Source: Patescibacteria group bacterium
Lineage (GTDB): Bacteria > Patescibacteriota > WWE3 > JAMCXX01
DNA: 64,000 nt
Direction of reading: 5' to 3'
Assembly: GCA_023474425.1 (NCBI GenBank)
Contig: JAMCXX010000002.1
Coordinates: 132,217 to 196,216 of the forward strand
The translations under genes were made by a program, and so were the position numbers. Below are positions 3,033 to 58,794 of this stretch, one piece after another. Under the pieces are notes generated by a model. The model searched no databases, was not told the DNA's origin, and saw only the letters and a program-made list of their open reading frames with translations. How positions within the stretch are numbered: the stretch's first letter is position 1; every line of letters starts with the position of its first letter.

Positions 3033-4904
3033 GTGGAAGATTTATTTACCGGTTTAAATCCGGAACAAATTGAGGCCGTAAAGCATACAAAAGGACCAGC
3101 CCTGGTTGTGGCCGGGCCAGGCTCGGGCAAAACCCGGGTACTCACCCACCACGCCGCTTATCTAATTTCCCAAGGAGTCCGGCCGGAAAATATTTTGTTA
3201 GTCACATTCACCAATAAAGCCGCACAAGAAATGAAGGAGCGTATCTCGCGAATTTTCAATTTTCAATTTTCAATTTTCAATTCCAAACTCCCCTGGTCCG
3301 GCACTTTCCATTCCGTTTGCAGCCGAATTTTGCGCCGGGAGGGACGCTTTCTTGGTCTAAGCCCAAACTTCTCGATTTTCGATGAGGCCGACAGCCGCAG
3401 CCTTATTAAAAAGGCCGTTAAAAAGCTCAAACTTGATGAAAGCCGGGTTAACCCGCAGGCAGCCCTCTCTGCCATAAGCGGCGCCAAAAACGAACTTATT
3501 GGACCGGAGGATTACCAAAATTATGCCCGCGGTTATTTCTACCAGAACGTCTCCTTAATCTTCGGCGAGTATCAAAAGGAGTTAAAACAAAATCAGGCGC
3601 TCGATTTCGACGACCTGCTTTTTTTCGCCGTTAAACTTTTTCGGGAGAACAAGGCGGCTCTTTCCAAATACCAGGGTTTCTTTAAACACGTTTTGGTTGA
3701 CGAATACCAGGACACAAACAAAGCCCAGTATGTTTTAGCCAAGCTTATCTCCCAAAAACACCAAAACATTTATGTCGTTGGCGACATGAGCCAGGCCATT
3801 TACAGCTTTCGGGGCGCCGACTACCGTAATATTCTTAATTTTGAAAGGGACTTTCCAAAAAGCAAAGTTTACCGTCTTTCCCAAAATTACCGCTCTACCT
3901 CCAATATTATTGAGGCGGCGGCAAACCTTATTGCCAACAATAAAACCCATCTTCCCCTAAATCTTTGGACGCAGAAGAGGGGCGGTGGGAAAATAAAATT
4001 GTTCGAGGCGGCCAACGAACTCGACGAAGCCGACTACATAATTAAGACCGTACTCAACGAGCAAGCAACTTTCAACTCTCATCCGCCAGCCGGCGGATCA
4101 ACTCTCAACTCGTATGCCGTCCTCTACCGCACTAATGCCCAATCGCGGGCCATTGAAGAGGCTTTTTTGCGTCGCGGGCTTCCCTACGTTCTCGTTGGCG
4201 GCACACGGTTCTATGAAAGAAAAGAAATTAAAGATATTATTAGTCTCCTTCGCCTCCTTAGAAACCCGCAGGACTCGTTAAGCTCGGAAAGAATTCTTAA
4301 AATCGGCAAAAAATTTGGTCGTCGTTACCTTGATTGGCTGGCGTCATTGAAAACAAAGGAAGGTATTTCCAAAAATAACGCTTTGGAAGTTTTGGATGAA
4401 GTTCTTAAAGAAAGCGGTTACCTGGAAATTTTCGACGAAAAAATCGAGGAAGAGAGAGAAAGGATAGAAAACGTTAAGGAGCTGCGGTCGGTGGCCGCCG
4501 GTTTTATTAATCTTGAAGAATTTTTAGAAAACGTTCAGCTGGTTCAGAACGAGTATCTAGTTTCCGATAAAGGCCGACTGGCCAAAGAAAATCGGCCCAA
4601 CGCCATAAGCCTTATGACTCTTCACAGCGCTAAGGGATTAGAATTCCCCGTTGTTTTTATGGTAGGCCTTGAAGAGGGTCTTTTGCCTCACTCCCGATCC
4701 CTCCTTGACCCAAGCGAACTGGAAGAGGAAAGACGACTTTGTTACGTAGGCATAACCCGCTGTCAGGAAGATTTGCATCTTATCTACACCCGTTCCCGTT
4801 TCTATTTTGGCGTTCGCCAGGCAGGGGTGGTTTCTCGTTTCATTGGCGAAATTCCCCAACATCTATTAGAATTCAAAAAGTCCAATTATTTTACCTATGA
4901 TTAA
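3033..4904 (+). CDS. UvrD/PcrA-type superfamily 1 DNA helicase
   Basis: GTG start. Walker A AGPGSGKT, DEYQDTN (motif II), VGDMSQAIYSFRGA, QNYRST, VLYRTNAQSR, TLHSAKGLEF and YVGITR motifs. Confidence 0.88.
   Translation: MEDLFTGLNPEQIEAVKHTKGPALVVAGPGSGKTRVLTHHAAYLISQGVRPENILLVTFTNKAAQEMKERISRIFNFQFSIFNSKLPWSGTFHSVCSRILRREGRFLGLSPNFSIFDEADSRSLIKKAVKKLKLDESRVNPQAALSAISGAKNELIGPEDYQNYARGYFYQNVSLIFGEYQKELKQNQALDFDDLLFFAVKLFRENKAALSKYQGFFKHVLVDEYQDTNKAQYVLAKLISQKHQNIYVVGDMSQAIYSFRGADYRNILNFERDFPKSKVYRLSQNYRSTSNIIEAAANLIANNKTHLPLNLWTQKRGGGKIKLFEAANELDEADYIIKTVLNEQATFNSHPPAGGSTLNSYAVLYRTNAQSRAIEEAFLRRGLPYVLVGGTRFYERKEIKDIISLLRLLRNPQDSLSSERILKIGKKFGRRYLDWLASLKTKEGISKNNALEVLDEVLKESGYLEIFDEKIEEERERIENVKELRSVAAGFINLEEFLENVQLVQNEYLVSDKGRLAKENRPNAISLMTLHSAKGLEFPVVFMVGLEEGLLPHSRSLLDPSELEEERRLCYVGITRCQEDLHLIYTRSRFYFGVRQAGVVSRFIGEIPQHLLEFKKSNYFTYD
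3251..3285. repeat. (AATTTTC)x4 plus one degenerate unit, in frame inside the helicase gene
   Basis: Read directly from the sequence. It encodes IFNFQFSIFNS in a variable linker before the TFHS motif. Confidence 0.85.
4067..4113. repeat. heptad tract (aactttc aactctc ... aactctc aactcgt) split by an 18-nt hairpin ATCCGCC-AGCC-GGCGGAT
   Basis: Read directly from the sequence. A 10-nt direct repeat tcaactctca flanks the 16-nt palindromic core. It encodes ATFNSHPPAGGSTLNS inside the helicase. Confidence 0.8.
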
Positions 4905-7576: not shown

Positions 7577-8201
7577 AAATATTATTTTCGATTGGGACGG
7601 GTGCTTGGCCAAAACTCTGGACATCTGGATGAGCGGCTACAAAGAAACTTTTCTGAAATACGGATTGAAACCGTTAGAAAAGGAGATTGTAGAAAAATGC
7701 TACGGCCGCTGGGACGGACCTAAAAATTTCGGTATTACTGACTTTATCGGATTCTATGACCAAATGATGCCCGCGGTCCGATTTAACCTCGAGACCGTTG
7801 ACCTCTATCCACAGGTCTGGGAAACTCTAAGAACGCTAAAAAGTTCTGGCAAAAGGATGGCGATACTGAGCACATCGGAACGCTATTACGTAGAAAAGGC
7901 CATCAATCATAACGGACTTCAGAATATTTTTGAAGCTTCTCTCTTCGGTGACGAGGTCACTAAACACAAACCGGACCCGGAACCAATTCTAAAAATTGTG
8001 GCTAGTCTTGGCATCGATTTGAGTGACACGGTTATCGTAGGCGATTCAGACAAGGATATTTTGGCAGCTCAAAACGCCGGAATCGACAGCGTCCTTTTTT
8101 ATCCGGAGGAGAACGAGAAATTTTACCTGAAACTGGAGTTTATTAAACTCGGGCCAAATTTTGTAATTCGTCACTTTGGCGAATTGCTTAAGATACTGTG
8201 A
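7554..8201 (+). CDS. HAD-superfamily hydrolase (phosphoglycolate phosphatase-like)
   Basis: DWDG motif I (IIFDWDGCL), S/T motif (ILSTS), K..P and GDSDKD motif IV. The start is taken at MTTEKKYK. Confidence 0.75.
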   Translation: MTTEKKYKNIIFDWDGCLAKTLDIWMSGYKETFLKYGLKPLEKEIVEKCYGRWDGPKNFGITDFIGFYDQMMPAVRFNLETVDLYPQVWETLRTLKSSGKRMAILSTSERYYVEKAINHNGLQNIFEASLFGDEVTKHKPDPEPILKIVASLGIDLSDTVIVGDSDKDILAAQNAGIDSVLFYPEENEKFYLKLEFIKLGPNFVIRHFGELLKIL

Positions 8202-9166
8202 CCAACGAAGAACTACTTAAAATTTATTTTTCGAATAAACACATCCTACAATCCCAACCGTGGGGAGAATTTAAGACTCTCATGGGAACAAAAGCGGTTA
8301 GGGTGGGTATTGCTCAAATGACTTTGCACAAAGTTCCCCTGTCCTCTTTTAAAGTTGGCTACCTGCCAAAGGCGAAACCAGTTGACCTAGACCTGGAAAA
8401 AATTTATGAAGTTGGGAAAAAAGAAAACTGTATTTCTGTAAAACTCGACGTCCCTCACACTAACGAAAATTTCAAATTTCAAAATTCAAATTTCAAATTG
8501 GTGCCAGGTAAACCCGTTTTTGCGCAGAGCACATTCCTTCTTGACCTGACTAAAAACGACGACGAGCTCTTATCCGGCATGCACGAAAAAACGAGGTATA
8601 ATCTGCGATTAGCTCAAAAGAAGGGTGTTGCCGTCAAAATTTATTCCAGCCCCGACGAACCCGGCGCCAAGACGGCGTTGGAAGAATTTATCCGACTGCA
8701 AAGAGAAACGGCCCGGCGCCAAAAATTCTTTGTCCATCCTGACCACTACTACCGAACCTGCTTTGACGTTCTTTCCGAGAAAAAAATGGCTTACCTCATC
8801 GAGGCTAAAATTTCAAATTCTATCGCTGCTTCCTGGATCCTCTTCCGCTACGGCGATGTTCTTTACTACCCCTACGGCGAATCAAACTACGAATACCGCA
8901 GCTTCATGCCCTCAAATCTTTTGATGTGGGAAGCAATTCAACTCGGAAAGAAATTAGATTGTAAGGTGTTTGACCTGTGGGGCGCGGCCGACGATCCGAA
9001 TGACGAATCCGACCCGTGGCATGGCTTCACCCGCTTTAAAATTTCATTCGGTGCTACCCACGTTAAGCTCGCTAAAACCTGCGATTTAGTTATAAACAGC
9101 TACCTCTACAACCTTTTCAACCTTGGGGATAAATTTAGGTGGAAACTGTTAAGGCTGATTAAGTAA
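8198..9166 (+). CDS. FemAB-family peptidoglycan interpeptide-bridge aminoacyltransferase
   Basis: The start overlaps the HAD stop (gtga). Family-like layout: QSQPWGEFK N-terminus and a central coiled region, with a paralog directly downstream. Confidence 0.65.
   Translation: MTNEELLKIYFSNKHILQSQPWGEFKTLMGTKAVRVGIAQMTLHKVPLSSFKVGYLPKAKPVDLDLEKIYEVGKKENCISVKLDVPHTNENFKFQNSNFKLVPGKPVFAQSTFLLDLTKNDDELLSGMHEKTRYNLRLAQKKGVAVKIYSSPDEPGAKTALEEFIRLQRETARRQKFFVHPDHYYRTCFDVLSEKKMAYLIEAKISNSIAASWILFRYGDVLYYPYGESNYEYRSFMPSNLLMWEAIQLGKKLDCKVFDLWGAADDPNDESDPWHGFTRFKISFGATHVKLAKTCDLVINSYLYNLFNLGDKFRWKLLRLIK
8467..8501. repeat. heptad tract aaatttc aaatttc aaaattc aaatttc aaattgg, in frame in the FemAB-1 gene
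   Basis: Read directly from the sequence. It encodes NFKFQNSNFKL. Confidence 0.85.
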
Positions 9167-9226
9167 GCAACATTTTGTAGAGAATAAAACTTGGGAAAGG
9201 TAAGAGCAAAATGGTATCTTTTGAGC

Positions 9227-10141
9227 ATGGAACTTAGACAAAGCCGTGAGTGGGGAAAATATTTGGCAAGTTTGGGGTGGCAGACGAAAGAAATTGATGG
9301 CTGTGCCCTGCGGATTAAAAAGTTGGGTCCGCTGGGTTCGATCATTAAAATTCAGCGACCCAAGAATTTGCCCCTCGAAAAAATCGACGAATTCGCCAAG
9401 CGCCTCCGGGCACTCTTTGTTAAAATTGAACCTTGCGATAATTCTCGATTCTCAATTCTCAATTCTCAATTTTATCGCCCGGATACCTGGCCGCTGACGC
9501 CCTCACGAACCGTCTTTATTGACTTGGCCCAAACCGAAGACGAACTTTTGAATAGCTTTTCCAAAGACACCCGACAAACCATTAAAAAGTCAGAAATTCC
9601 AGGAATCAAATATCAAATAGCCGATCTTGGGAATACCCATAGCTACCACACTACAGTGTATGGTAGCATGGAAAGAAGGGATAAATATTTGAGCGACTTT
9701 TATCAGGTGTGGAAACTTACAGGAACACGCGGCAAGTTCTGGGTTCTTTCTTTTTCCGAATATCTAAATAAGATCGCGGCTTTTGAAGGTAAGGGGTTCT
9801 TTGTGCTTTCATATCTCGAAGAGCGCCTCGTTTCCGGATGCCTCATTTTAATTTGTGACGGGATAGCTTACTATCACCACGCTGCATCCACTTTGGAGGG
9901 CCAAAACCACCACACCCCTTACGGTCAACTCTGGAAAGCCATTCGGGAAGCAAAAAAAAGAGGCTGTACCAAAATGGATTTAGAGGGAATCTTCGACCCG
10001 AGATTTAAAGATATGTTTAAAAGATGGCTTAACTTCTCGACCTTTAAACTCAAATGGGGCGGCGAAGTTTTTGAATACCCGGGCTCTTTTACCAAAGCAT
10101 ACAATCCGCTAATCGGACTCCTCTTTAAAATCAACAGGTAA
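9227..10141 (+). CDS. FemAB-family aminoacyltransferase, second paralog
   Basis: MELRQSREWGKYLASLGW N-terminus parallels the upstream paralog. C-terminal FK.KWGG pattern. The start is chosen at the internal ATG 9227; the track ORF begins at TTG 9191. Confidence 0.6.
   Translation: MELRQSREWGKYLASLGWQTKEIDGCALRIKKLGPLGSIIKIQRPKNLPLEKIDEFAKRLRALFVKIEPCDNSRFSILNSQFYRPDTWPLTPSRTVFIDLAQTEDELLNSFSKDTRQTIKKSEIPGIKYQIADLGNTHSYHTTVYGSMERRDKYLSDFYQVWKLTGTRGKFWVLSFSEYLNKIAAFEGKGFFVLSYLEERLVSGCLILICDGIAYYHHAASTLEGQNHHTPYGQLWKAIREAKKRGCTKMDLEGIFDPRFKDMFKRWLNFSTFKLKWGGEVFEYPGSFTKAYNPLIGLLFKINR
9440..9474. repeat. heptad tract aattctc gattctc aattctc aattctc aatttta, in frame in the FemAB-2 gene
   Basis: Read directly from the sequence. 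It encodes DNSRFSILNSQFY. Confidence 0.85.
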
Positions 10142-13100
10142 TATTAGTTGACCGTCTTTCTGCGGCACGCCGTTAGGCCAGCAGTGGGGCTTAAACTCGC
10201 AGTAAGAACAAAAGTCGTAATTGGTTGTGCGCGGGAACTCGAGCTTTCTAATTTTTCCCATAACTTCCTTAATGAGCGCCTTTAGCGCCTCCGTCTCTTC
10301 ACGGCTAATGACAAAGGAGTGTCTTACGAATTTGCCTTCCCGTCCCTCTACAAAGTCCAACTCTGATTCAACCACATCATAGTTAAAGGACCGGTCCAAA
10401 TCGGCCAAAATTTTATAAAAGATGAGCTGTCTTTTATATGAAGGATCCTTCTCCTTAGTTTGGCCCTCAACTTCGCTGCGGCTTCTGGGTCTACCGGTTT
10501 TGTAGTCTACCACTTTAACCGGTCGCCGGACATTTGGATAAGATTCCACTGGCAGAGGATCGATCCGATCAACCTTGCCGGTTAAGGGTATATCTCCTAA
10601 ATAAACTTTGGAAAACCCATAACCAAAGAATTTTTCGGTAAAAATTGGCCGCACTAAACTGCCGCGGTAAAACTCGTAATAGGCCTTTAGAATTTTTCTC
10701 CCTTTAAGCAAAATGTCTTCGTAATCTTTTTTTGTTAGAATTTCGTTCTGCAAAGCAACCTCGAATTGGTCAATTAAAAACTGCGACTCCGGCAGACGTC
10801 CTTCGTCCCGGAACCTGCGCAGCATGAGCTCTAAAGCCCGGTGAACGGCCGAGCCGAAGGACAGGTATTTGTCTTTAGCCCGCGGCGTGCGCAATAGAGT
10901 ATTAAGTTTAAATTTATAAGGACACTCCAAATAGGTGTTGAGGGCGGTTACTGAAAGTTTAAAATCGCGCAGGACGGTGGTTAAAAAATCTTTCTCGGCA
11001 ATACTTGTCTGAACTCGGGGAACAATGGCCAGCAAATCCTTAAGTAGCTCCTTAACTTTGTTCTCGTATGGGGAAACATCTATCAACCGGAAGTTGTTAT
11101 TCCCAATTTCGGTAATAAACTGCGAGGGGAAAGTTTCGCGCAAAGCCGAATCGCCTGGATAATTGTCGGCATAAGTAATAAAGACTTTATGGCGGGCCCG
11201 GGTTAAGGCTACATAAAAAAGACGGCGCTCGTCCTCATTGACACTATCCGATTCAATGGGCCCTGATCTTTTGGGCCCAAAGGCATTACTGTCGACAGAT
11301 GCCAAAAGATTTGACGGTAGTTTAATAAGCTCGCGCGTCTTATTGTTGCCGAACTTTCCGTCTAAGCACTTAACAATAAACACGTAATCAAACTCCAGTC
11401 CTTTGGCGCCATGGGCAGTGGTCAGAACAACGCTCTCCGTTTTAATTTCCAAGTCTTCTTCGGAAACGGAGATTCCAGCCTCCCGCAAGACCCTTAAGTC
11501 CTCAAAAAATTTTTCCAAATTAAGCGTGTGATCGAAGGAGTTAAGCCTTTTGATTTCAGTAAAAAGCGAATTAAGACGGTTAAGTTTTTCTACGCTGTCC
11601 GGCAGACCCAAAACCCATTCCAAAAAACCGCTCTCATTAACCACTTTTTCAAAAAGCGCCGTGAGGGTCAGGTTGGCGCCGTCTTTCTGCCACTCTAAAA
11701 GTTTGTTGACAAAAGTAATAAAGGACCTCGGGCTCCTCACTATCTTGCCTTTCTCAAAATCGGCGTGGAGCACAGCCTCAATAAAGTTGACCTTAAGGTC
11801 GCTAGAAAATCGCGCCAGTTTTAAGGTATCCAAATAATCCAAACCGAATCTTTGGGCAACAAACTCGTAATTAAAAACGGTAAATAGATCCAAATCTTCT
11901 TCGCGAACCCGGATTTTAAGAATTAACTCCAAAAGCCTTAGAATTTTATCTAAATCGTAATCTTTGAGTACGTTCTCCCCCGCCCGAAGATTATAGTTAA
12001 TCTTAAGCCTAGATAATGTATCGGCTAACCCTTGGGCGTCGGCGTTGTGCCGGTAAATTACGGCAATCTGCGACGGGCGGGCGCCGCCGTCAATAAGCTC
12101 CTTTATTTTTTGGCCCACAAAAAAACTTTCGGTGATGCCTGAACTAAAGTGGGCCACCTCAACACCGATTTCACGTCGGGCCGATTTTAACTTTTTTCCG
12201 CCGTGAACAAATACAAGCTGGCGTTCAATACCTTTAATATAATTGGAAAGCCTTATCCGATTATGGCTAATGAGTGTGTAAGCGGCATCCAAAATTTCTT
12301 GCTGACTACGATAATTTTGTCTTAAGGTAATCACCCGAGCCTTGGGGTAAAGTCGACGAAAAAGAAGAATGTTTTCCAGGGAAGCTCCCTGAAACCGGTA
12401 AACGGACTGTTCATCGTCACCGACGGCAAAGATGTTGGCATCATTGCCCCAGAATTTACCCAAAAAACTAACCACTTTATTTTGCGGCGAATTGGTATCC
12501 TGAAACTCATCCAACAAAATATACTGAAAACGCTCCTGGTAGCGGCGCAAAAAAGTCTCATCTTGCTCAAAAGCCTCAACCACGAGATTAATCATATCCT
12601 CAAAATCGTAGCGAGACTTCTCCGCAATTTTCTCCTGATATCTCTTATAAACCTGCAGGAGTTCGAGATTCTTCTGCAGATCTCTCTTCTCAAACCCGTC
12701 GTCCAACACTATCTTAGATTCAGAATGCTTAGTTATGATTCCGATTTCCGAACTCTGAATTCTGATTCTCTTTAAGACCTCGTCAAAGTCATCCGGGGAA
12801 ATCCCTTCCCGCTTCAAATCCTGAATACTTTTAATAAGCGCTCGGACATAGTAATACCTTGAGCCGAACGGCTTTAAGGATTCAAACCGGCCTTCGTCCA
12901 AAATCTGCCTGAATATTTGTACGCGTTCCAGTTCGGAGAGAGGCTCTAAGTCTTCGCGAACAATAAACTTCTCGGGGTTCTCCTGAATCAGCTCACTGCA
13001 AAAGGAATGGAAGGTATGAACACCAACGTAGTAAGCTTCCGCGCCGATGAGGGAAACGAGACGTTCGCGCATGGCCTTGACTCCGGATTCGGTAAAAGTA

Positions 13101-13312
13101 AGGGCCAAAACAGCCGAGGCCGGCACGTCAGTTTTTAGGAGAATGTTGGCAATTCGGGCGGCCAAAACCTGCGTCTTGCCCGTCCCCGGGCCGGCCACAA
13201 CCAGGACCGGCCCTTCGATAGTATCTACGGCCTCTCTTTGAGCCGGATTAAGGCTTTTATAAACTTTTTCAAAATCTTTTGAGGTTTTTTTCCTTTCCGA
13301 CTCGGAAACCAT
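10109..13312 (-). CDS. UvrD-family helicase fused to a C-terminal PD-(D/E)XK (Cas4/AddB-like, Cys-cluster) nuclease
   Basis: Walker A AGPGTGKT, DEFQDTN, VGDDEQSVYRFQGA, QNYRS, TAHGAKGLEF and YVALTRA motifs. C-terminus has CPYKF .. VDYKTG .. CSYCEFKPHC. The start is taken at MVSESERKK. Confidence 0.8.
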   Translation of the reverse strand: MVSESERKKTSKDFEKVYKSLNPAQREAVDTIEGPVLVVAGPGTGKTQVLAARIANILLKTDVPASAVLALTFTESGVKAMRERLVSLIGAEAYYVGVHTFHSFCSELIQENPEKFIVREDLEPLSELERVQIFRQILDEGRFESLKPFGSRYYYVRALIKSIQDLKREGISPDDFDEVLKRIRIQSSEIGIITKHSESKIVLDDGFEKRDLQKNLELLQVYKRYQEKIAEKSRYDFEDMINLVVEAFEQDETFLRRYQERFQYILLDEFQDTNSPQNKVVSFLGKFWGNDANIFAVGDDEQSVYRFQGASLENILLFRRLYPKARVITLRQNYRSQQEILDAAYTLISHNRIRLSNYIKGIERQLVFVHGGKKLKSARREIGVEVAHFSSGITESFFVGQKIKELIDGGARPSQIAVIYRHNADAQGLADTLSRLKINYNLRAGENVLKDYDLDKILRLLELILKIRVREEDLDLFTVFNYEFVAQRFGLDYLDTLKLARFSSDLKVNFIEAVLHADFEKGKIVRSPRSFITFVNKLLEWQKDGANLTLTALFEKVVNESGFLEWVLGLPDSVEKLNRLNSLFTEIKRLNSFDHTLNLEKFFEDLRVLREAGISVSEEDLEIKTESVVLTTAHGAKGLEFDYVFIVKCLDGKFGNNKTRELIKLPSNLLASVDSNAFGPKRSGPIESDSVNEDERRLFYVALTRARHKVFITYADNYPGDSALRETFPSQFITEIGNNNFRLIDVSPYENKVKELLKDLLAIVPRVQTSIAEKDFLTTVLRDFKLSVTALNTYLECPYKFKLNTLLRTPRAKDKYLSFGSAVHRALELMLRRFRDEGRLPESQFLIDQFEVALQNEILTKKDYEDILLKGRKILKAYYEFYRGSLVRPIFTEKFFGYGFSKVYLGDIPLTGKVDRIDPLPVESYPNVRRPVKVVDYKTGRPRSRSEVEGQTKEKDPSYKRQLIFYKILADLDRSFNYDVVESELDFVEGREGKFVRHSFVISREETEALKALIKEVMGKIRKLEFPRTTNYDFCSYCEFKPHCWPNGVPQKDGQLILPVDFKEESD
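12737..12771. repeat. heptad tract gattccg atttccg aactctg aattctg attctct (plus-strand reading; antisense to the gene)
   Basis: Read directly from the sequence. It lies within the helicase-nuclease CDS and encodes IRIQSSEIGI on the minus strand. Confidence 0.7.
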
Positions 13313-13331
13313 AATTAGTGAATTCTTCGGA

Positions 13332-14399
13332 TTATTCCAAAAGGTCGGTCTGCTTTGGTTCGGCAAGCTGAATTGAGGATATTTTTCCTTCCAGACGGGA
13401 AAAGGAGGAAGCGGATTCGTCGGCGGCGTTCTTAGCGTTGGTAATGTGTTTAACGGTCAGCCTAAGGTCGTCGCTAAATTTTCCGGCTTCAATCCTTATG
13501 GCCTTCAGCGAGCTTAAAATCTGATTAACCTCACGGGCCACCTGCTGCCTCTCAAAACCAAAAAGAATCACTTTAAGATACTGGGTGAACATGCTGGGCG
13601 AGGCAATAACCACGTTCTTTTGATAAGCATAGTCGACCAAGTCGTGGAAATTGTTGACAATTTCATAGACGACCGGCTCGGAGGGCACATACATAATGGC
13701 CCGATCCATGGTCCCTTCCTCCGGCAGTATATATTTGCGGGCAACGGCATCAATATGACCTTTTACGTCTTTTACGAATTCCTTGCCCGACTTTTCACGC
13801 TCAAGAGGTTCCACGCAGGATAAATATCGTTTGAAGGTGTCCATGGGAAACTTGGAATCCACCGGCACGTTGCCGTCGGCAGTCACAATTAAGGCGTCAA
13901 CCTTTTCGCCGCTCCTAAATGTGTGCTGGAGCTTAACCGATTCAACGGGGAAATGCTGCTTTAGCAAATCGTATAAAATCTGTTCTCCAATGTTGCCGCG
14001 CAGTTTCGGCGCCTGCAGAAGCTGGTGCAAATCCTTAAGATAGACGCTGGCCTCCTCCATGGCTCCCAAATTCTTTTGCACACCGCCGATTACTTCAGCC
14101 GCCTTGTCCAGACGCTCATTGAGCTGTTTGGTGTTTTCCTGAAGGGTTTTGGAAACATCGGCCGTGCTCGCCCGCAGACTCTCATTAACAGTCTTGGCCA
14201 AAGCGTCGAGAACCGTTTGGGTGTTGCGGGCCGAGTTCTCCTGGCTCTGCTGTGTGGATTTAAGCCACTCGAGAAGCATTTTCCGGCTCTCTTTTTCCGC
14301 CTCCGACCCGGCTAATTCCCTGAATTTACGGTTGGTAAGGTAAATCAAAAGGGCAAAGCCGGCCACGATAAGAAGAGCTAAAAACAGATTAAAAGACAT
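13332..14399 (-). CDS. rmuC: DNA recombination protein RmuC
   Basis: N-terminal TM helix, a long coiled-coil region, and a C-terminal RmuC-like nuclease region (VDALIVTADGNVPVDSKFPMDTF). Confidence 0.78.
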   Translation of the reverse strand: MSFNLFLALLIVAGFALLIYLTNRKFRELAGSEAEKESRKMLLEWLKSTQQSQENSARNTQTVLDALAKTVNESLRASTADVSKTLQENTKQLNERLDKAAEVIGGVQKNLGAMEEASVYLKDLHQLLQAPKLRGNIGEQILYDLLKQHFPVESVKLQHTFRSGEKVDALIVTADGNVPVDSKFPMDTFKRYLSCVEPLEREKSGKEFVKDVKGHIDAVARKYILPEEGTMDRAIMYVPSEPVVYEIVNNFHDLVDYAYQKNVVIASPSMFTQYLKVILFGFERQQVAREVNQILSSLKAIRIEAGKFSDDLRLTVKHITNAKNAADESASSFSRLEGKISSIQLAEPKQTDLLE

Positions 14400-20532: not shown

Positions 20533-20539
20533 CCTCACC

Positions 20540-20587
20540 ATGATTATCGACACCCACACTCACCTGGACATGAAGGAATTTGACTAG
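20540..20587 (+). pseudogene. duplicated 5' fragment of tatD (15 codons, then TAG)
   Basis: atgattatcgacacccacactcacctggacatgaaggaatttgac matches the real tatD start at 22478 (atggtcatcgacactcacactcacctggacatgaaggagtttgac) with 4 mismatches over 45 nt. Confidence 0.8.
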
Positions 20588-22393: not shown

Positions 22394-22477
22394 AAATCAA
22401 ATTTAACACGGCCGGTTTGCGCTCGCAAGAACATTTTTGGTTTATTTTCGTCTAGGCGCCCCTGCTATAATCAATAC

Positions 22478-23302
22478 ATGGTCATCGACACTCACACTCA
22501 CCTGGACATGAAGGAGTTTGACACAGACCAAGAGGCGGTTATAAAACGGGCCCTTGAAGCTGGGGTGGAAAAAATCATTACTGTGGGAGTAGACCTTGAA
22601 AGCAGCCGTGAAGCCCTTAATCTGGCGGCGGAACACTCTAACATCTACGCCGCCGTCGGCATTCAGCCGGAAGAGATCGACCAGTATTTCGACGGGAGCA
22701 AAATCAGCACGGATATTCGATCTGAATTAGAAAAATTGGTTAAAAATAAAAAGGTGGTCGCCATTGGCGAAATCGGGCTCGATTATAAGTACATAAGAGA
22801 GAAAGTAAAAAGTGATAAGGAAGAATTGATAAATCTGGAAAAAGAAAAACAAAAAGAGATTTTTAGAAGACAACTGGGTTTGGCGGTAACGCTCGCCCTC
22901 CCGGCTATTATTCACAGCCGCGATGCTGACGATGATACGTTGACGGAAATATTAAGATATAGAGAAACCAGAAGACTGCGTGGCGTCATTCACTGTTTTA
23001 CCGGTACTTACCCTTTCGCGCGAAAGGTTCTCGATGCCGGATTCTACGTTTCTCTTTCCGGGATCGTAACATTTCCGAATGCCAAAGAGCTTAGAGAAGT
23101 CGTTAAACAAATTCCGCTCGACAAAATTTTGGTTGAAACGGATTCGCCTCTTATTGCTCCGCGGTCTCACCGCGGAGCGCGCAACGAACCGTCCTTCGTG
23201 GTAGAGGTTATTAAAGAAATTTCGGAAATTAAAAACCTGACACCGGCCGAGGTGGAAACAGTTACGTCAAAGAACGCCGAAAAGTTATTCCGTTTGTGGT
23301 AA
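22478..23302 (+). CDS. tatD: TatD-family metal-dependent hydrolase/DNase
   Basis: IDTHTHLD N-terminal motif, GEIGLDY, HSRDA, HCFTG and ETDSP motifs. Confidence 0.9.
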   Translation: MVIDTHTHLDMKEFDTDQEAVIKRALEAGVEKIITVGVDLESSREALNLAAEHSNIYAAVGIQPEEIDQYFDGSKISTDIRSELEKLVKNKKVVAIGEIGLDYKYIREKVKSDKEELINLEKEKQKEIFRRQLGLAVTLALPAIIHSRDADDDTLTEILRYRETRRLRGVIHCFTGTYPFARKVLDAGFYVSLSGIVTFPNAKELREVVKQIPLDKILVETDSPLIAPRSHRGARNEPSFVVEVIKEISEIKNLTPAEVETVTSKNAEKLFRLW

Positions 23303-28186: not shown

Positions 28187-28221
28187 AAATCTCAAATTCG
28201 AATATCGGAATTCGAAATCCC
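28187..28221. repeat. heptad tract aaatctc aaattcg aatatcg gaattcg aaatccc
   Basis: Read directly from the sequence. It lies in the divergent intergenic region (or in the extended N-terminus of the track ORF 27638..28228). Confidence 0.7.
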
Positions 28222-44798: not shown

Positions 44799-47099
44799 CT
44801 ATTTCTCAACTTCCGGCCATTTGGAAATAATCAGCGGCTCGTTGTGCTTCCTTGACATCTGCTGCCAGATGGCTTCGGTGACAAACGGCATAAAGGGATG
44901 AAGCAGCTTCAAGCAGGTCAGGATGGTATGTCGTAAGAGTGACAAACATACAGCTTTTTCCTCGTCCGTCTGGGACTGTTCGAGTCTCGATTTACAATTC
45001 TCAATATATTTGTCCGCAACCTCGTGCCAGACAAACTGGTAAATCTCCTCCCCCGCCCGGGCAAATTTAAAGTTCTCCAAAGATCGGTCAACTTTCCTCA
45101 CTAGAAGATTTAAACTTTTAATAATTTTACGGTCCTCGGTCGTCAAACTCTTTGTCGTCTCTTTAGAATAGAATGGAATATCTTTACCTAATTTTTCACA
45201 CTCACTCAAAAAAAAGCGGGCGATATTCCAGACTTTGTTGCCGAAATTTCTAAAGGCAATAACTTTGTCGCGGGGGAAATTAAAATCCCTGCCGTTGGCC
45301 GTGCCCGAAATAAGCCCCATTCTTAAAGCATCGGCGCCAAACTCCTTTAAATAATCGTCGGGCTCAATTACATTGCCCAAGCTCTTGCTCATCTTGCGCC
45401 CATCAAGGGCCCTTACTATTCCGTGCAGGTAAACGTATTCAAAAGGAGGCTTTCCGGTCAAATAGAGGCCGAACATGATCATCCGCGAAACCCACTTGGG
45501 CAAAATTTCCCACCCCGTTTCCAAAACGGAAGTCGGATAAAAATATTTAAAGTCAGCCGAATTAGGATAGCCCAGAGTTGTGAGCGGCCACTGCCCCGAA
45601 GAAAACCAAGTGTCAAAAGTCTCGGTTGTCTGCAAAAATTTCTCTCCGGGTTTGTTATCGGAAATAACGTAACAACAGTCCTTGGGAGCCGTAAGGGTTT
45701 GCAATCCGGACTCAATTTCGGCAAAGGAATAATTTTTCATAATCTCCCCGACCCGACCGGAGACAGGAACTTTTTCTTGGCTAAGAAACGAGATCTCAAT
45801 TTGGGGATTTTTTGAAACATCGTACCAGGCCGGAATCCGAATGCCCCACACATTCTGGCGGCTAATAGCCCAGTCGTGCATAACCTCCATCCAACGGGTA
45901 TAGGTAATCTTTCGCCACTTTGGATAAATTTTGACTTTATCACTGTCAACAGCCTTAGCCGCCGATTTTTTTAACGTCTCAACCTTTATGAACCAGTTGG
46001 GAAGAATTGTAGGCTCTATGTCGTGGCCGGCTTTGCAAACCGGAACCAGATGTTCATAATTTTCGTCCGTCTTAACCAAAAGCCACTCACCTTTCAAATC
46101 TTCGACCATAAGTCTTCTGGCCTCAATCACTTTCTTGCCGTGATACTTTTGGGCTCTTTCCCTGTATTTTTCCGAAACATCCTTCCGACTCAAGTACCAG
46201 GAAAGGTCCATACGCCCGGAAAGGTCAATAACAGGTGTAACGGGCAGGTTGAATTTTTTGCCCAGCTCAAAATCGTGGGGGTCGTGGGCCGGAGTGACCT
46301 TCATAATTCCGGTACCAAACTTCGGGTCAACCTTAGGGTCAGGGATTACCGTCATACTCACACTTCCCAGAAGCCCCGGAATCTCCAAAGTCTGCCCAAT
46401 ATACTTTTTGTACCTTGCGTCTTTGGGATTTACGGCCAAGGCCGTGTCCCTAAATTTCGTTTCCGGCCGCACTGTGGCAATGGTAAAAGGACCGTATTTC
46501 ATAAAATAAAGCGGGTCCCGCCGCGCCTTGTGCTCAACCTCTATATCCGCATAGGTTGTGCCGCAGGAAGGACAGTAGTTAACAATGTAGTCGTCTCGGT
46601 ACACCAAATTACTCGCGGCCAGTTTGGAAAAAGTGCTCCTGACAACGGCCACGGCGTCAGGATCGAGGGTAAACTTGTACCGGCTCCAGTCGACGCTGGC
46701 ACCCATTTGCTTGATTTGGCCCTCAATTAACCCTTTATTTTTTTGCACAAAGTCCCAGATCAGCTGATACAGGCTTGCGCGGTCGAACTGGAAACGCGAT
46801 TTACCTTCTTTTTTTAATTCTCTTTCGAAAGTGATTTGCGTCTCCGTACCGGCGTGGTCGGTGCCGGGAAGCCACAGGGCAGGCTCCCCTCTCATTCGGT
46901 GCCAGCGGATTAGTAGATCTTCGATGGCAATCATTAAAACGTTGCCGGTGTGCATCTTGCCGCTGGCGTTGGGCGGGGGCAAAAGTACGGTAAAGGGCTT
47001 TTTACCTTCCTCTATTTTGGGGGTAAAATAACCCCCTTCCTCCCACATCCTGTAGATCTTTTCCTCAACTTCAGCTGGTTTAAAAATTTTGTCCATCAT
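44799..47099 (-). CDS. valS: valine--tRNA ligase (short form)
   Basis: PPPNASGKMHTGNV (HIGH-type), WLPGTDHAGTETQ and KMSKSLGN motifs. Confidence 0.88.
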   Translation of the reverse strand: MMDKIFKPAEVEEKIYRMWEEGGYFTPKIEEGKKPFTVLLPPPNASGKMHTGNVLMIAIEDLLIRWHRMRGEPALWLPGTDHAGTETQITFERELKKEGKSRFQFDRASLYQLIWDFVQKNKGLIEGQIKQMGASVDWSRYKFTLDPDAVAVVRSTFSKLAASNLVYRDDYIVNYCPSCGTTYADIEVEHKARRDPLYFMKYGPFTIATVRPETKFRDTALAVNPKDARYKKYIGQTLEIPGLLGSVSMTVIPDPKVDPKFGTGIMKVTPAHDPHDFELGKKFNLPVTPVIDLSGRMDLSWYLSRKDVSEKYRERAQKYHGKKVIEARRLMVEDLKGEWLLVKTDENYEHLVPVCKAGHDIEPTILPNWFIKVETLKKSAAKAVDSDKVKIYPKWRKITYTRWMEVMHDWAISRQNVWGIRIPAWYDVSKNPQIEISFLSQEKVPVSGRVGEIMKNYSFAEIESGLQTLTAPKDCCYVISDNKPGEKFLQTTETFDTWFSSGQWPLTTLGYPNSADFKYFYPTSVLETGWEILPKWVSRMIMFGLYLTGKPPFEYVYLHGIVRALDGRKMSKSLGNVIEPDDYLKEFGADALRMGLISGTANGRDFNFPRDKVIAFRNFGNKVWNIARFFLSECEKLGKDIPFYSKETTKSLTTEDRKIIKSLNLLVRKVDRSLENFKFARAGEEIYQFVWHEVADKYIENCKSRLEQSQTDEEKAVCLSLLRHTILTCLKLLHPFMPFVTEAIWQQMSRKHNEPLIISKWPEVEK

Positions 47100-47224
47100 A
47101 GAAACACCACAAATTTGCCTGTGAAGGTTGGGCTTCAACACAAATCTGCAAAAACCATCAAGACCTAAGTAACCCTAATTATAGGTATAAAGTTGGAATA
47201 TCGCGAATTTCCTTATACATGTAT

Positions 47225-54964: not shown

Positions 54965-56068
54965 ATGAAGTTTAAGTGTCTTTCCGAGAATTTATCCCAG
55001 GGCCTTTCCGCTGTTTCCCACGCCGTTTCTACTAAAGCCTCTTTACCGGTTCTTTCGCATATACTTCTCGAAGCCAGGGACGGTTCCATTTTTCTTTCGG
55101 CCACCAATCTGGAAATCTCCATCCGCACGAGTCTGCCGGCCGAACTCGAGGAAGAAGGGGCGGCCTGTTTGCCCGGCCGTGTTTTTACCGAGCTTATTTC
55201 CAGTCTGCCCAAAGGAGAAATCAGTTTGGCGGAGAAAAATAATTTAGTCACCGTTAAGAGCCAGAAGACAAGTTCTAAAATTAACGGTCTTAATCCTTCG
55301 GAATTTCCCAAAATTTCCGTTTCTGGAAAGCCTTTGTTCTCGCTAAATCCGTCGGTCTTAGTTCAGGAGTTGCCTAAAGTTTCCTTTAGCGCCGCCACCG
55401 ATGAGGGTCGCCCGGTCTTGACCGGAATTCTTATGGAAGCTTTGGATGGGACGCTGACTCTTGTGGGAGTTGACGGCTTTCGTCTTTCCGAAAAAAAGAT
55501 CTCTGTGGATAAAGGCATAACCTTTAAGCAGGTAGTTCCAGCCAAGGCTTTGTTGGAGGTTTCCCGGCTTCTCTCCAGCGAGGATAGTATGGAAGTTTTA
55601 CTCTCCGACGAAGAGAATCAAATTGTTTTTAAATCTCCTAGTTTTGAAATCTGCAGCCGGCTTTTGGAGGGCAGTTTTCCCGATTACAAAAAAATTATTC
55701 CACAGAACGTTCTGACCACGGCCGAGTTTAGCGTTGAGGAAATGAGGGCCACCCTGCGCACCGTTTCCGTTTTTGCCAAGGACGAAGGCAGTGTGGTTAA
55801 AATGATTCTGAATCCGGAAAAGTCGGAGATTTTGCTTTCGGCCAGTGCTTCGGAGGTCGGCGAAAACGAGGCTTCCCTCTTTGCCAAAATTACCGGCGAG
55901 GCCGCCGAGGTTTCCTTTAACATCCACTACCTAAACGATTGCCTGGCAAACATCGGCGAGGAAGACGTGGCTTTCCGTTTTACCGGTCCCTTAACCCCCG
56001 GCATTTTTGTGCCCGTTGCTAAAACCGATTACCTCCACCTCATTATGCCCATCCGCGTTCAGGCATAG
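54965..56068 (+). CDS. dnaN: DNA polymerase III subunit beta
   Basis: 367 aa with a three-domain clamp layout and a C-terminal IMPIRV motif. Confidence 0.95.
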   Translation: MKFKCLSENLSQGLSAVSHAVSTKASLPVLSHILLEARDGSIFLSATNLEISIRTSLPAELEEEGAACLPGRVFTELISSLPKGEISLAEKNNLVTVKSQKTSSKINGLNPSEFPKISVSGKPLFSLNPSVLVQELPKVSFSAATDEGRPVLTGILMEALDGTLTLVGVDGFRLSEKKISVDKGITFKQVVPAKALLEVSRLLSSEDSMEVLLSDEENQIVFKSPSFEICSRLLEGSFPDYKKIIPQNVLTTAEFSVEEMRATLRTVSVFAKDEGSVVKMILNPEKSEILLSASASEVGENEASLFAKITGEAAEVSFNIHYLNDCLANIGEEDVAFRFTGPLTPGIFVPVAKTDYLHLIMPIRVQA

Positions 56069-56102
56069 AAAGTTGAAAGTTCAAAGGGCAAAGTTGAAAG
56101 TT
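56068..56102. repeat. heptad tract gaaagtt gaaagtt caaaggg caaagtt gaaagtt (reverse orientation of AACTTTC)
   Basis: Read directly from the sequence, immediately after the dnaN stop. Confidence 0.8.
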
Positions 56103-56107
56103 AAGGT

Positions 56108-56128
56108 ATCCGGCTAGCCGGATTTTTT
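56108..56128 (+). terminator. rho-independent terminator of dnaN
   Basis: Palindrome ATCCGGCTAGCCGGAT followed by a T6 run. Confidence 0.7.
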
Positions 56129-56138
56129 ATCTTTGATT

Positions 56139-58082
56139 TTAATTCGTGTGGGGCTCGGGCGGCGGAGAGCCGCCGGAAGCTTCCACCGGAAAAGGCGGCT
56201 GTGTGGGGTTAATGTTCGGGACTGGGTTAGCCGGCACTTGAGTTGCGGGGTTGGGCCGCGCGCCATCTTTATTGAGCGAAGCCAGAATTTCTTTGGGAGA
56301 AGTGGTAATGAGCTTGTGTTCGGAAGGGGATGCCACCACCTGCATGGCCACGTGATTGGTGCCGGCAAAAAATAAACCTTCGCCAACATTGCAGGAAAGC
56401 AGAAATTTCTTTTCCCCGTCGGAGAGGTAAAAAACCTCCCCCAGTTTATCAATGGCCGCCGGGCTCTGTTTAAAAAGAACCTGCAGAGAAGAGTTGGTCA
56501 CGATCGCCTTGCCGTAGTCCGAGCTTAAAAAATCCTCCACATCTTGGGTGATTGTAGAAAGACCCAAGTAGTATTTGCGTGCCCTTTTGGCAATGGAGTA
56601 AATAAAGGTGGCCGATTCCGGGTACTGCATTAAGTACCATGCCTCATCAACCACAAGAATTCTTCTTTTAATTTCGCGGCGTATTTTTGTCCAAATATAG
56701 TCAAGAATAATGTACATGGCAATGGGGCGAAGCTGGTCTTCCAAGTCGCGGATGGAAAAAACGGTAAAGGTATTGCGGATGTTAATGTTTGAACGCTGGT
56801 CAAAAATGCCGACGAGAGAGCCTTTAATATAGCGCTCGAGCATGTCCGCCAGAGTTTTGGCGTCGGTATCTTCCATGGCCAGAAGAACTTTGTAAAGATC
56901 TTCCATAATCGGCGGTTCATTTTTTTGCGTTCCCGGGTCGGCGGTAATGCCTTTAAGTTTATAGGTGGCCACAAGCGCGCGGTCCAAGACAGCTTCCTGG
57001 GTGGCGCTAATGTTTTTAAAAATTATTTTAAGAAGGGTATGGAGCGATAGGATTTTTAGACCCAACTCGTTTTCGCCCTCTTCGTAGACGCCAGAGAGGT
57101 CGAAGGGATTAATCTTGGAGGGGCTATTGGGTGAGAAAGTTATATACTCGCCGCCGATAGCCTGGGTGAGTTTCTGGTATTCGGACTCGGGGTCAATGAC
57201 AATGATTTCCGCGCCGAACATAAGGGAACGGAGAGCCTCAAGTTTGACCATGTACGATTTACCGGCGCCGGACTTGGCAAAAATAACCATATTGGCGTTC
57301 TCCAGCGAAAAGCGGTCAAAAATAATCAAAGAACCGTTGTGCTCGTTAATGCCGTAAAGGGTGCCCTCATTGGCCGTCAGCTCCGAGGAAGTAAAGGGAA
57401 AAGTCGTGGCCAGCGAAGTTGTGTCCATGTTGCGGATAATGTAGAGCTTGTCGAGGCATAGTGGAATGGTTGAGGCGAAGGCGTCTTCCATTTGCAAGGT
57501 GGCGTGCTTGGAAAAAAGCAGAAGACTGCCCAAAACCGCTTCCACTCTTTTGGTTACGGTGTTGAGCTCCTCAAGCGATGAGGCGGGAATGGTGATGTAG
57601 AATGAGAACTGAAAAAATCTCTCAACGCCTTTGACCAGCTGTTCCTGAAGAGCTAAAGCGTCTTCCAGGGCGGCTTTAACCACCGGGTCGGTGACTTTGC
57701 CCTGCTCGCGGTCGGCGTTCATGGTTGCTTCCATTTCGGCAATCTTGCGCTTTAAATTGTCCAGAATTCCGTGGGAGGCCACCGGGTAGTAGAACATGGA
57801 AATGTCGAGCGTGTGGTCAAAGTTGATTAAGGGGGAGAGCCAGTTGGCCCCCACAAAACGCGGGTAGCCGGAAACAAAAATGGTGCGGAAGTAGCCATTG
57901 CCGATTTTCACATAGTCAAAGTCAACCTCCAAGGCGGATGGTGAAATAAGGTCGAGAATTTCGGTAATACCTTCGGCCACCTGGTTGGTCTTGAGGTTCA
58001 GCTCCTCGTCCCTGATTTTTGCGCTTTTCGCTGTATTTTGGTCAGCCGGACTTTTTTTATCTTTCCTGCCAAATAGTGCCAT
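56139..58082 (-). CDS. VirB4/TraC-like type IV secretion ATPase
   Basis: Walker A AKSGAGKSYMVK and Walker B ILVVDEAW. The N-terminal region (GYFRTIFVSGYPRFV..W) is typical of Gram-positive-type VirB4. Confidence 0.8.
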   Translation of the reverse strand: MALFGRKDKKSPADQNTAKSAKIRDEELNLKTNQVAEGITEILDLISPSALEVDFDYVKIGNGYFRTIFVSGYPRFVGANWLSPLINFDHTLDISMFYYPVASHGILDNLKRKIAEMEATMNADREQGKVTDPVVKAALEDALALQEQLVKGVERFFQFSFYITIPASSLEELNTVTKRVEAVLGSLLLFSKHATLQMEDAFASTIPLCLDKLYIIRNMDTTSLATTFPFTSSELTANEGTLYGINEHNGSLIIFDRFSLENANMVIFAKSGAGKSYMVKLEALRSLMFGAEIIVIDPESEYQKLTQAIGGEYITFSPNSPSKINPFDLSGVYEEGENELGLKILSLHTLLKIIFKNISATQEAVLDRALVATYKLKGITADPGTQKNEPPIMEDLYKVLLAMEDTDAKTLADMLERYIKGSLVGIFDQRSNINIRNTFTVFSIRDLEDQLRPIAMYIILDYIWTKIRREIKRRILVVDEAWYLMQYPESATFIYSIAKRARKYYLGLSTITQDVEDFLSSDYGKAIVTNSSLQVLFKQSPAAIDKLGEVFYLSDGEKKFLLSCNVGEGLFFAGTNHVAMQVVASPSEHKLITTSPKEILASLNKDGARPNPATQVPANPVPNINPTQPPFPVEASGGSPPPEPHTN

Positions 58083-58098
58083 ATGATTTAGGTCTTAC

Positions 58099-58791
58099 TC
58101 ATTGCCCTTCCACCGCCGCCTGAACTAAAGGCGCCGTGTATTCGGCTGCCTGGCCGCGCAGTCTTTCCTCGGCCGAAGTGTAAGGGTTGTAAATATCGTA
58201 AAAAAGCTCTACCAGCTCCTGCGTGTCGAGTTTTTTGGCTTTAATTCCCACCCGTGAGAGCTGTTTAATAATCAAATCTACCTTCGGCTCAAGTTGAATT
58301 TTCCCTTTGTCCAAAAGAGCCCGCCGATTAACCCGCGGCGCTTTTTTTTGCGGCAGCCCGAGGAAATTTAGAAAGGCGCTAAAAATAGAGGCCTCCGGTT
58401 TTAGGGAGACGTCCTGGTAGGGAACGACCACATAAAAACGTTTGTCCAGGACCTCGTTTTTGGAAATGAGCTCGGAAACATAGCCGCGGTAATTTTTAAT
58501 CTGCTCGCGAAGATAAGGGTTGGTCTGGCTCTGTTCAACCGATTCCAGACTCTCCACATAGCTGCTAATATCCATTTTTTTGGAGCGGATGACGATTTGA
58601 ATAGGGAAGGTTAGAGAGTTTAAAAATTGCGAATAGCCGGCAATCATGGCATCCTGCTCTATCTCTGATAGCAGGTCAAAATTGACGGCCGTGGTCTGAA
58701 TAACCGCCGCCGCCCCGTTGTTTTTGAGAAGAACATACCCTTCCCTTATGTCCTCAATATCAAGTCCTTCCTGGGTTGAAGCTAGTGCCAT
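58099..58791 (-). CDS. hypothetical protein, T4SS-module associated
   Basis: 230 aa, translationally close-packed between the PrgI-like and VirB4-like genes. No catalytic motif recognised. Confidence 0.4.
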   Translation of the reverse strand: MALASTQEGLDIEDIREGYVLLKNNGAAAVIQTTAVNFDLLSEIEQDAMIAGYSQFLNSLTFPIQIVIRSKKMDISSYVESLESVEQSQTNPYLREQIKNYRGYVSELISKNEVLDKRFYVVVPYQDVSLKPEASIFSAFLNFLGLPQKKAPRVNRRALLDKGKIQLEPKVDLIIKQLSRVGIKAKKLDTQELVELFYDIYNPYTSAEERLRGQAAEYTAPLVQAAVEGQ

Positions 58792-58794
58792 AAA

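Follow-up and report, generated by a model that had tools for sequence, protein, structure and literature searches.

Why would conserved bacterial genes carry short tandem runs of a unit 7 nt long, a length that is not a multiple of three, and how would such runs stay periodic? The question is raised by a 64,000-nt stretch of a Patescibacteria group bacterium (contig JAMCXX010000002.1, positions 132,217 to 196,216; hereafter the window), for which an earlier note, made from the sequence alone, had listed eight tracts with the consensus AAYTYYN, in spacers and inside the genes for a UvrD/PcrA-like helicase, two FemAB-family proteins (FemAB-1 and FemAB-2) and an AddA-like helicase-nuclease. We find that these heptamer arrays are a real, statistically solid feature.

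The window was searched with Tandem Repeats Finder and with our own scan for periods 4-12, dinucleotide shuffles providing the expectation; the period-7 score of a tract was compared with that of control windows, and its match to the unit profile was expressed in bits. Tandem Repeats Finder returned (AATTTTC)x4.6 at 3251-3282 (100% match), (AAATTTC)x4.7 at 8467-8499, (AATTCTC)x4.6 at 9440-9471 and (GAAAGTT)x5.0 at 56068-56102 (78% match), all of them head-to-tail arrays of 7-nt units in 4.6-5 copies, with at least three copies having been set as the minimum. These four period-7 arrays compare with approximately 0.1 expected from the shuffles, and the other periods between 4 and 12 gave 0-1 array each. 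Period 7 is thus the sole enriched tandem period in the window, and the dispersed family proposed in the earlier note is real.

Six of the eight tracts proved to be supported (loops 1 and 2 of UvrD/PcrA, FemAB-1, FemAB-2, the AddA-like gene and the 3' end of dnaN), five of the six being intragenic. The other two, at 762-817 and 28187-28221, are at noise level, with a period-7 score of 7 that is matched by 0.8% of control windows, and a unit-profile match of 10-15 bits that is no better than that of background sites. The spacer after GAPDH in L208 (related and matching contigs are given L numbers) holds no array. The note was correct in that the intragenic tracts are read through all three frames, giving the peptides NFQFSIFNS, NFKFQNSNFKL and SRFSILNSQF. 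Its consensus was a fair one, although AAWTYTC suits the strong arrays better. Single AAWTYTC-type heptamers outside the arrays of the window occur at expectation on both strands, which rules out a dispersed single-copy motif of the FtsK orienting polar sequence (KOPS), Chi or uptake-sequence type. An assembly artefact was also rejected: the arrays are in frame and recur at orthologous sites in independent assemblies, and they are far below the expected assembly k-mers, as judged from contig names (e.g. k141, NODE).

Orthologous arrays in related genomes

The best UvrD matches of the window are Patescibacteria (candidate phyla radiation, CPR) of Microgenomates type, and the closest species-level genome has a UvrD identity of only 53%. 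At the positions where the window has them, period-7 arrays are also present in relatives with 63-68% protein identity. In L081, a JGI contig that is syntenic from UvrD to RmuC and whose UvrD is 67% identical, period-7 tracts lie at the orthologous positions of UvrD loops 1 and 2, FemAB-1, FemAB-2 and AddA, with units that differ from those of the window (AACTTCY/AACTAAT, AACTTAC, CAACTAT, ATCACTA and GGAATYN).

The array in UvrD loop 1, between helicase motifs Ia and Ib, has a period-7 score of 26 and adds 5 aa relative to PcrA in the alignment. Orthologous arrays in the same codon register are present in L081, L208, L209 and L210, with AAY at matching codon positions in all five genomes. The unit is AATTTTC in the window, AAATTTC in L210, AACTTCY/AACTAAT in L081, YAACTCA in L209 and TAAYCGC in L208, the variable positions being uniform inside each array and different between genomes. 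The loop measures 18-26 aa in five relatives. Of 120 UvrD homologs, many have a loop of 13-15 aa and others one of 19-21, 25-27 or 40 aa; the longer ones resemble three-frame heptamer translations (e.g. LLVTNHQLLITNL, FANGKWQMANGKS). The loop-2 tract has on its own a weak period-7 score (8), and was accepted as an array because uninterrupted orthologous arrays are found in L081 (AACTCAT AACTTAC AACTTAC) and L209 (AACTCGC AACTCAC). An array is also present at the matching UvrD position of L198; it is absent in L210.

In two relatives, UvrD is called as two open reading frames (ORFs), namely P0122/P0123, which lie on one 64,921-nt ENA contig, and P0126/P0125. In both, the first call stops after KYVL(I/V)D and the second starts at MSQAIYSF, the DEYQDTN...VVGD stretch being missing from them; either a frameshift at helicase motif II or some intervening element could be the reason, and the break is not at an array.

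In the FemAB genes, the L081 orthologs have (CAACTAT) at the position of the FemAB-1 array and a periodic ATCACTA/ATTACTA in FemAB-2, neither with an indel. The AlphaFold model of FemAB-1 (mean predicted local distance difference test score 95.8) has the array segment, at approximately residues 90-100, as coil; together with the 5 aa added to UvrD, this bears out the description of the tracts as lying in variable loops of conserved enzymes. The FemAB array is equal in length to the native segment of Staphylococcus aureus FemX and occupies the place of QNLKALGFKHKGFKEG. That the tracts are simple insertions is thus not supported. Two clades among 120 FemAB homologs have a segment of constant length, 36 or 38 aa, and most of their members show 7-aa periodic peptides such as NFKFQIS, which is (AAATTTC)x3, and NYQLPTT, which is (AACTACC)x3; two other clades are without such peptides. 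Programmed -1 frameshifting was considered and rejected: judged by eye, the AAATTTC of FemAB-1 fits the slippery pattern X XXY YYZ, but the remaining units do not, and the ORFs run without a break.

The array of the AddA-like gene contains one indel and has a period-7 score of 12, reached by 0.02% of control windows; the L081 ortholog, which is 9 aa shorter, reads GGAATTG GGAATAA GGAATCA AGAATCG at the same place. The non-coding array overlaps the dnaN stop codon by a single base and is followed by a hairpin and T-run, a terminator-like site at approximately 56110-56128. It is kept in position and orientation in L084/L085 (unit AAATTTG), measuring 35 nt in the window versus 31 nt in L084; L083 and L086 lack it. 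No copy of this organism was found when metagenome contigs were scanned for the array with its flanks as anchors.

Arrays adjoin terminator-like hairpins in the window, L014 and L070. In L068 (Atribacterota), two inverted arrays of one unit (2356-2387 and 2570-2605) flank a bidirectional terminator hairpin between convergent genes. Partly palindromic period-10 repeats, CGAATCTTAA / GATTCGCTAA, are present in L084 (8378-8438 and 11619-11643) and L086 (7841-7890), just upstream of dnaN and near a TraG-like gene; no counterpart was found in the window.

The units of an array are uniform, and differ between genomes, at sites that stay fixed. This is concerted evolution, whose process can presumably be sought in the copying of units: synonymous sites are expected to be saturated at this divergence, so that a tract evolving base by base would lose its periodicity, and because periodicity has been kept, the units must be continually copied onto one another. 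The patterns AABB, ABAB and ABBA that units form inside arrays of L003, L025, L027 and L001 are read as stepwise duplication.

We also surveyed 80 UvrD-ortholog loci (1.24 Mb). The loci held 21 period-7 arrays versus 1-6 for other periods; in all fetched DNA, a sample partly ascertained for period 7, the counts were 281 versus 3-28. Across CPR lineages, arrays recur in the same loops of UvrD, FemAB, KsgA and LepA, with genome-specific units. Recurring hosts are the UvrD Ia-Ib loop (L003, L004, L024), FemAB (L009), LepA (L010, L011) and the KsgA loop before NYK..GNIPYY (L016, L025, L027); further arrays lie in LeuRS, in TsaD and in an ORF of L001 that was judged by eye to encode an ATP-dependent DNA ligase. 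When metagenomes were scanned for (AAWTYTC)x4, at least 120 contigs matched. Among the matches listed, G+C content is 24-66%, many contigs have several dispersed arrays, and the hosts named by eye include LeuRS and a further class I tRNA synthetase, as well as UvrD and large membrane proteins. A cyanobacterial origin of these matches was rejected, only three of the 120 listed contigs being rich in the HIP1 octamer. L182 has six arrays of unrelated units, and a single ORF there can contain several.

Within genes, orientation is set by the reading frame. Each unit of the family is stop-free in three frames on the coding strand, and its reverse complement gives a stop in every frame; the array of the AddA-like gene, which is on the minus strand, is likewise stop-free on that strand. 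The orientation of intragenic arrays is forced by stop-codon avoidance. The strand polarity about the origin that had been suspected can therefore be discarded: the sole reversed array does lie to the right of oriC, but it is the non-coding one next to dnaN, and stop avoidance predicts every intragenic orientation.

Palindromes and genomic setting

In UvrD loop 2, a palindrome (Table 1) takes the place of the array's central unit; the core of this palindrome, CCGCCAGCYGGCGG, has nine copies in 2.2 Mb of fetched DNA versus 0.016 expected. In the form (AT)CCGCCAGCYGGCGG(AT), each strand reads GCTGGCGG. The L213 copy lies in the middle of a UvrD loop-1 array, the L090 copy in a loop of an ORF named by eye as TsaD-like, the L083 copy in the dnaA-rnpA spacer and the L148 copy 10 nt upstream of a start codon. 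Overall, three copies are in frame and encode PPAGG in protein loops, two are inside heptamer arrays, and the remaining ones are in intergenic DNA, the copies being scattered over several CPR-like genomes. Two unrelated loci, in L212 (313-330, FemAB) and L143 (1893-1909), have another GC-rich palindrome, CCTGCCGGCG(C)AGGCAGG, in mid-array, and the FemAB homologs P0286, P0289, P0296, P0301, P0304 and P0307 have inserts of 5-11 aa within the array segment (e.g. PAGAGRP, CLAGRQA, SAGPRSGGG). It appears that small GC-rich hairpins are drawn to arrays or arise jointly with them. The idea that arrays are target-site duplications left by repeated insertion and excision of palindromes was rejected: the palindromes replace 7-10 nt and have no clean 7-nt flanking duplications.

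Table 1. Heptamer arrays, host genes, origin landmarks and palindrome copies (window coordinates unless an L number is given).
Feature	Position	Strand	Description
UvrD/PcrA loop 1 array	3251..3285	+	(AATTTTC)x4 + AATTCCA; translated IFNFQFSIFNS
UvrD/PcrA loop 2 array	4067..4113	+	AACTTTC AACTCTC, 18-nt palindrome, C AACTCTC AACTCGT
Palindrome ATCCGCCAGCCGGCGGAT	4081..4098	.	18 nt; replaces central unit of UvrD loop-2 array; translated PPAGG
FemAB-1 array	8467..8501	+	(AAATTTC)x4.7; translated ENFKFQNSNFKL
FemAB-2 array	9440..9474	+	(AATTCTC)x4.6; translated NSRFSILNSQF; position homologous to FemAB-1 array
AddA-like gene array	12737..12771	-	Degenerate; coding strand AGAATC AGAATTC AGAGTTC GGAAATC GGAATC
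dnaN 3' array	56068..56102	-	Non-coding; (GAAAGTT)x5 on + strand, AACTTTC on - strand
UvrD/PcrA helicase	3033..4904	+	Host gene; Pfam PF00580, PF13361
FemAB-family paralogs, tandem	8198..10141 (8198-9166; 9191-10141)	+	Host genes; Pfam PF02388, PF13480
AddA-like UvrD helicase + PD-(D/E)XK nuclease	10109..13366	-	Host gene; Pfam
dnaA	51273-52691	-	Assignment used for origin placement
DnaA box TGTGGATAA	52729		
rpmH-rnpA		+	dnaA/rpmH spacer marks origin
(AT)CCGCCAGCYGGCGG(AT) copy	L213 5236-5253		
(AT)CCGCCAGCYGGCGG(AT) copy	L090 2688-2701		
(AT)CCGCCAGCYGGCGG(AT) copy	L083 7625-7638		
(AT)CCGCCAGCYGGCGG(AT) copy	L084 11684-11697		
(AT)CCGCCAGCYGGCGG(AT) copy	L148 525-538		
(AT)CCGCCAGCYGGCGG(AT) copy	L149 690-703		

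GC skew switches at approximately 48-53 kb of the window and, together with dnaA, the DnaA box and the dnaA/rpmH spacer next to rpmH-rnpA, it places oriC near 52.7 kb; the arrays of the window are all at most approximately 50 kb from it. Adjoining dnaN and the origin, at 56139-60588, is a conjugation- or type IV secretion-like cluster with a TraG/VirB4-like ATPase, a TraC-like ORF (by synteny) and a PrgI-domain protein, which is kept at the same place beside dnaN in relatives L083-L086.

Three further observations concern the window and one relative. On the plus strand at 44975-45010, inside a minus-strand gene for a class I aminoacyl-tRNA synthetase (44799-47141), GAGTCTC GATTTAC AATTCTC AATATAT may be a decayed array; it has 76% identity to the FemAB-2 array, and its period-7 score is at noise level. 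A 46-nt direct repeat with 91% identity occurs at 20539-20584 and 22477-22522; the second copy is the 5' end of ORF 22478-23302 (MVIDTHTHLDMKEFD), and the first, in a spacer, resembles a remnant of a paralog's start. In L209, positions 146-1852 encode a 568-aa thioredoxin-domain protein with an intein splicing domain (Pfam).

What keeps the arrays periodic

Any explanation has to account for the enrichment of the arrays, their orthologous positions, the homogeneity within each array, the stop-free orientation and the location in loops. On balance, we think it probable that heptamer arrays are a microsatellite-like class of approximately 4.5 units, or ~32 nt, in which slipped mispairing or gene conversion acts among the units and the tolerance of loops acts as a filter. 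Arrays would settle where altered or extra sequence is tolerated, that is, in surface loops of housekeeping enzymes, where they would be translated in three frames into low-complexity peptides, and in the spacer after a stop codon. Misaligned pairing of units, during replication slippage, unequal sister exchange or short-patch gene conversion, would then recopy units and so keep the periodicity while the unit sequence drifts, and established arrays may persist very long. Within genes, only stop-free units and frame-keeping lengths would be viable, which would fix the orientation and freeze the length. The several unrelated units in one L182 ORF argue for such a local process rather than for one master copy. 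Near-neutrality of the arrays and a molecular process of homogenisation are what we infer from this pattern.

Several observations weigh against this explanation. Outside the tracts of the window, arrays of two AAWTYTC copies are absent. Length is a second difficulty. Leaving aside arrays that the search pattern itself had picked out, a length of 29-32 nt is found in 27 of 55 coding arrays and in 27 of 96 non-coding ones, and one of 33-39 nt in only six and 11, respectively; numbers drop sharply beyond 33 nt and are also lower for shorter arrays, whereas simple birth-and-death slippage predicts more short arrays. Third, the near-identical contig pairs from different samples, L081/L082 (one mismatch in 10.6 kb) and L084/L085, and the 98.9% identical pair L124/L164 have identical arrays with no copy-number variation, these being few comparisons, and the length of intragenic arrays is constant across whole clades, as in the FemAB segment. 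Single-unit slippage would shift the frame, which leaves the homogenising step unexplained. Finally, unit pairs with at least six of seven identities make up 8 of 27 within loci versus 23 of 501 between loci (Fisher p = 6e-5); array units at different loci of one genome resemble each other, for which local slippage alone is insufficient. The earlier note had argued for more than local slippage, and this is upheld by the likeness of units; its reading of the tracts as simple insertions is not supported, the array in FemAB having the length of the FemX segment.

The length peak, the genome-specific units and the palindromes within some arrays go beyond the standard microsatellite picture. We speculate that expansion might be favoured until the misaligned overlap (L-7, approximately 25 nt, where L is array length) allows efficient contraction, and that in genes the preferred length might be the smallest state able to slip three units, 11 + 21 = 32 nt.

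The likeness of units within a genome would also be expected if arrays were copied between loci, an alternative that we consider possible but unlikely. A pre-formed array of ~32 nt would spread by template switching, microhomology-primed gene conversion or a transposition-like activity, and the arrays would be selfish DNA surviving only in permissive loops, like the Rickettsia palindromic elements (RPEs), which set a precedent for in-frame intragenic repeat insertion (PMC10969869). Such copying would be consistent with the discrete array size, with an AAYTYTC common to 5-6 loci of the window, with units more alike inside a genome than between genomes, and with the finding that contigs retrieved via one AAWTYTC array often hold more of the same family (L092, L099, L126, L133). 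It could also explain why AT-rich arrays are present in contigs of 60-66% G+C, and why GC-rich palindromes of conserved sequence lie inside arrays of different genes and genomes. The dnaN 3' and UvrD loop-2 arrays are polymorphic for presence or absence at orthologous sites among relatives, as copying would predict, although decay of old arrays explains this equally well. What such copying does not explain is that the flanks are without terminal inverted repeats or target-site duplications, and that the copies are not near-identical, the units of one array being more uniform than those of different arrays. Orthologous arrays hold their site and register while the unit drifts in place; the FemAB array substitutes native sequence of equal length; and the six arrays of L182 have unrelated units.

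A different possibility, which we rate as rather improbable, is that a factor binds the arrays and recognises their 7-bp or 7-nt units in a cooperative manner, approximately 4.5 units being its footprint and the unit co-evolving with it; the model for this is the omega repressor of plasmid pSM19035. Selection for a common motif does not predict that the units of one array resemble each other more than those of different arrays, and the arrays lie not in promoters but within coding loops, in genes that are unrelated to one another. Moreover, one ORF can hold several unrelated units (L182), single heptamers are not enriched, and the same loops bear quite different units across lineages, as tolerance of insertion predicts. 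Consistent with a function are the fixed length in both coding and non-coding contexts, the genome-specific units, the position and periodicity kept over deep divergence, the stable array length in close relatives and the proximity of the window's arrays to the origin. No ribbon-helix-helix protein or other candidate binding protein was found among the small ORFs of the window, and no ribbon-helix-helix family in 18 further ORFs scanned there, beyond the nine that were Pfam-scanned.

We give equally little credence to a broader proposal, that CPR and some other bacteria have a maintained genomic system in which the periodicity of fixed-size heptad arrays of ~32 nt is preserved by a process dedicated to it, be it templated rewriting or a factor that reads heptads, the arrays also being preferred landing sites for the palindromes (AT)CCGCCAGCYGGCGG(AT) and CCTGCCGGCG(C)AGGCAGG. 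If true, such a system would have held the same codon positions of housekeeping genes over genus-to-class divergence.

That the arrays are contingency loci, as the earlier note had ventured, with gain or loss of one or two units shifting the frame (7 not being a multiple of 3) and thus reversibly switching UvrD, the FemAB paralogs and AddA, is very unlikely, given only ~4.5 units per array, no length variants between the few near-identical contigs from different samples or within 90% protein clusters (whose members have identical loops), an array length invariant across FemAB clades, split UvrD ORFs that break away from the arrays, arrays in the same loops of many lineages, and hosts that are housekeeping genes (UvrD/PcrA, FemAB, AddA-like and the dnaN 3' end in the window; KsgA, LepA and LeuRS elsewhere).

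Comparison with known repeat systems

Phase variation of hmw1A of Haemophilus influenzae is driven by heptanucleotide repeats, and the arrays described here share with this and other phase-variable loci, such as those with tetranucleotide repeats, units that are not a multiple of three and lie in or next to genes. Contingency loci, however, have many units, visible polymorphism, and surface or restriction genes as hosts, whereas our arrays have ~4.5 units and housekeeping hosts, and showed no polymorphism in the few comparisons made. The omega repressor of plasmid pSM19035 binds contiguous 7-bp heptads. In the inc18 plasmids, the heptads form operator or centromere arrays in promoter regions, some of them direct and others inverted, and the cognate protein, the ribbon-helix-helix protein omega, is known. 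Short arrays of contiguous 7-bp units are a point of likeness, cooperative reading being a feature of omega; promoter location, mixed orientation and a cognate protein were not found in the 64-kb window.

The RPEs resemble our arrays in being in-frame repeats in unrelated housekeeping genes that encode a peptide with which both the structure and the function of the protein are compatible (PMC10969869). They are palindromic mobile elements of ~100-150 bp with a conserved sequence, whereas the arrays here are 32-nt tandem heptamers without palindromic structure and without a conserved full-length sequence.

The closest counterparts are bacterial heptanucleotide simple sequence repeats (SSRs), of which several families are known: STRR in Calothrix and Nostoc, GGGAATC in Xanthomonas, GGGGAYT in Nostoc, and TAACTGA in Beggiatoaceae, Cyanobacteria and Bacteroidetes. 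Heptameric SSRs are over-represented in many bacterial genomes (Rehm et al., PMC4692102), an excess that has been noted since 2007 and never explained; it has been hypothesised that the preference for 7 nt stems from the stretch of DNA that occupies the active site of the polymerase, with polymerase slippage as the process (PMC4692102). The genome-specific TAACTGA family, with 2-6 copies per set, has some copies in ORFs in stop-free orientation or overlapping stop codons, and shows indels in 7-nt steps between close strains (MacGregor, PMC4679880). Our arrays belong to this known, unexplained class of over-represented heptanucleotide repeats, with which they share short tandem 7-nt arrays, a genome-specific unit and dispersed copies (PMC4692102; PMC4679880).

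They differ from it in several respects. Most copies of the SSR families lie between genes, in many cases a short way upstream of a start codon, whereas the arrays here are mostly intragenic and in frame, within conserved enzymes of housekeeping type; in Beggiatoa the copy-number distribution falls monotonically, whereas here it peaks at ~4.5 units; and, unlike the SSR families, the arrays of these CPR bacteria are at orthologous codon positions across genera, with a drifting unit. What is new is the presence of arrays in essential genes, at codon positions that remain fixed over deep divergence, and their staying periodic while the unit changes, which makes them a natural system for measuring concerted evolution under the constraint of a reading frame. 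Also new are the preferred length of ~32 nt irrespective of unit or coding status, and the interruption of some arrays by conserved GC-rich palindromes. The arrays account for odd low-complexity inserts, such as NFQFSIF, NFKFQIS and NYQLPTT, in conserved CPR proteins, and annotation of CPR genomes should treat such segments as nucleotide-level features, not as protein motifs.

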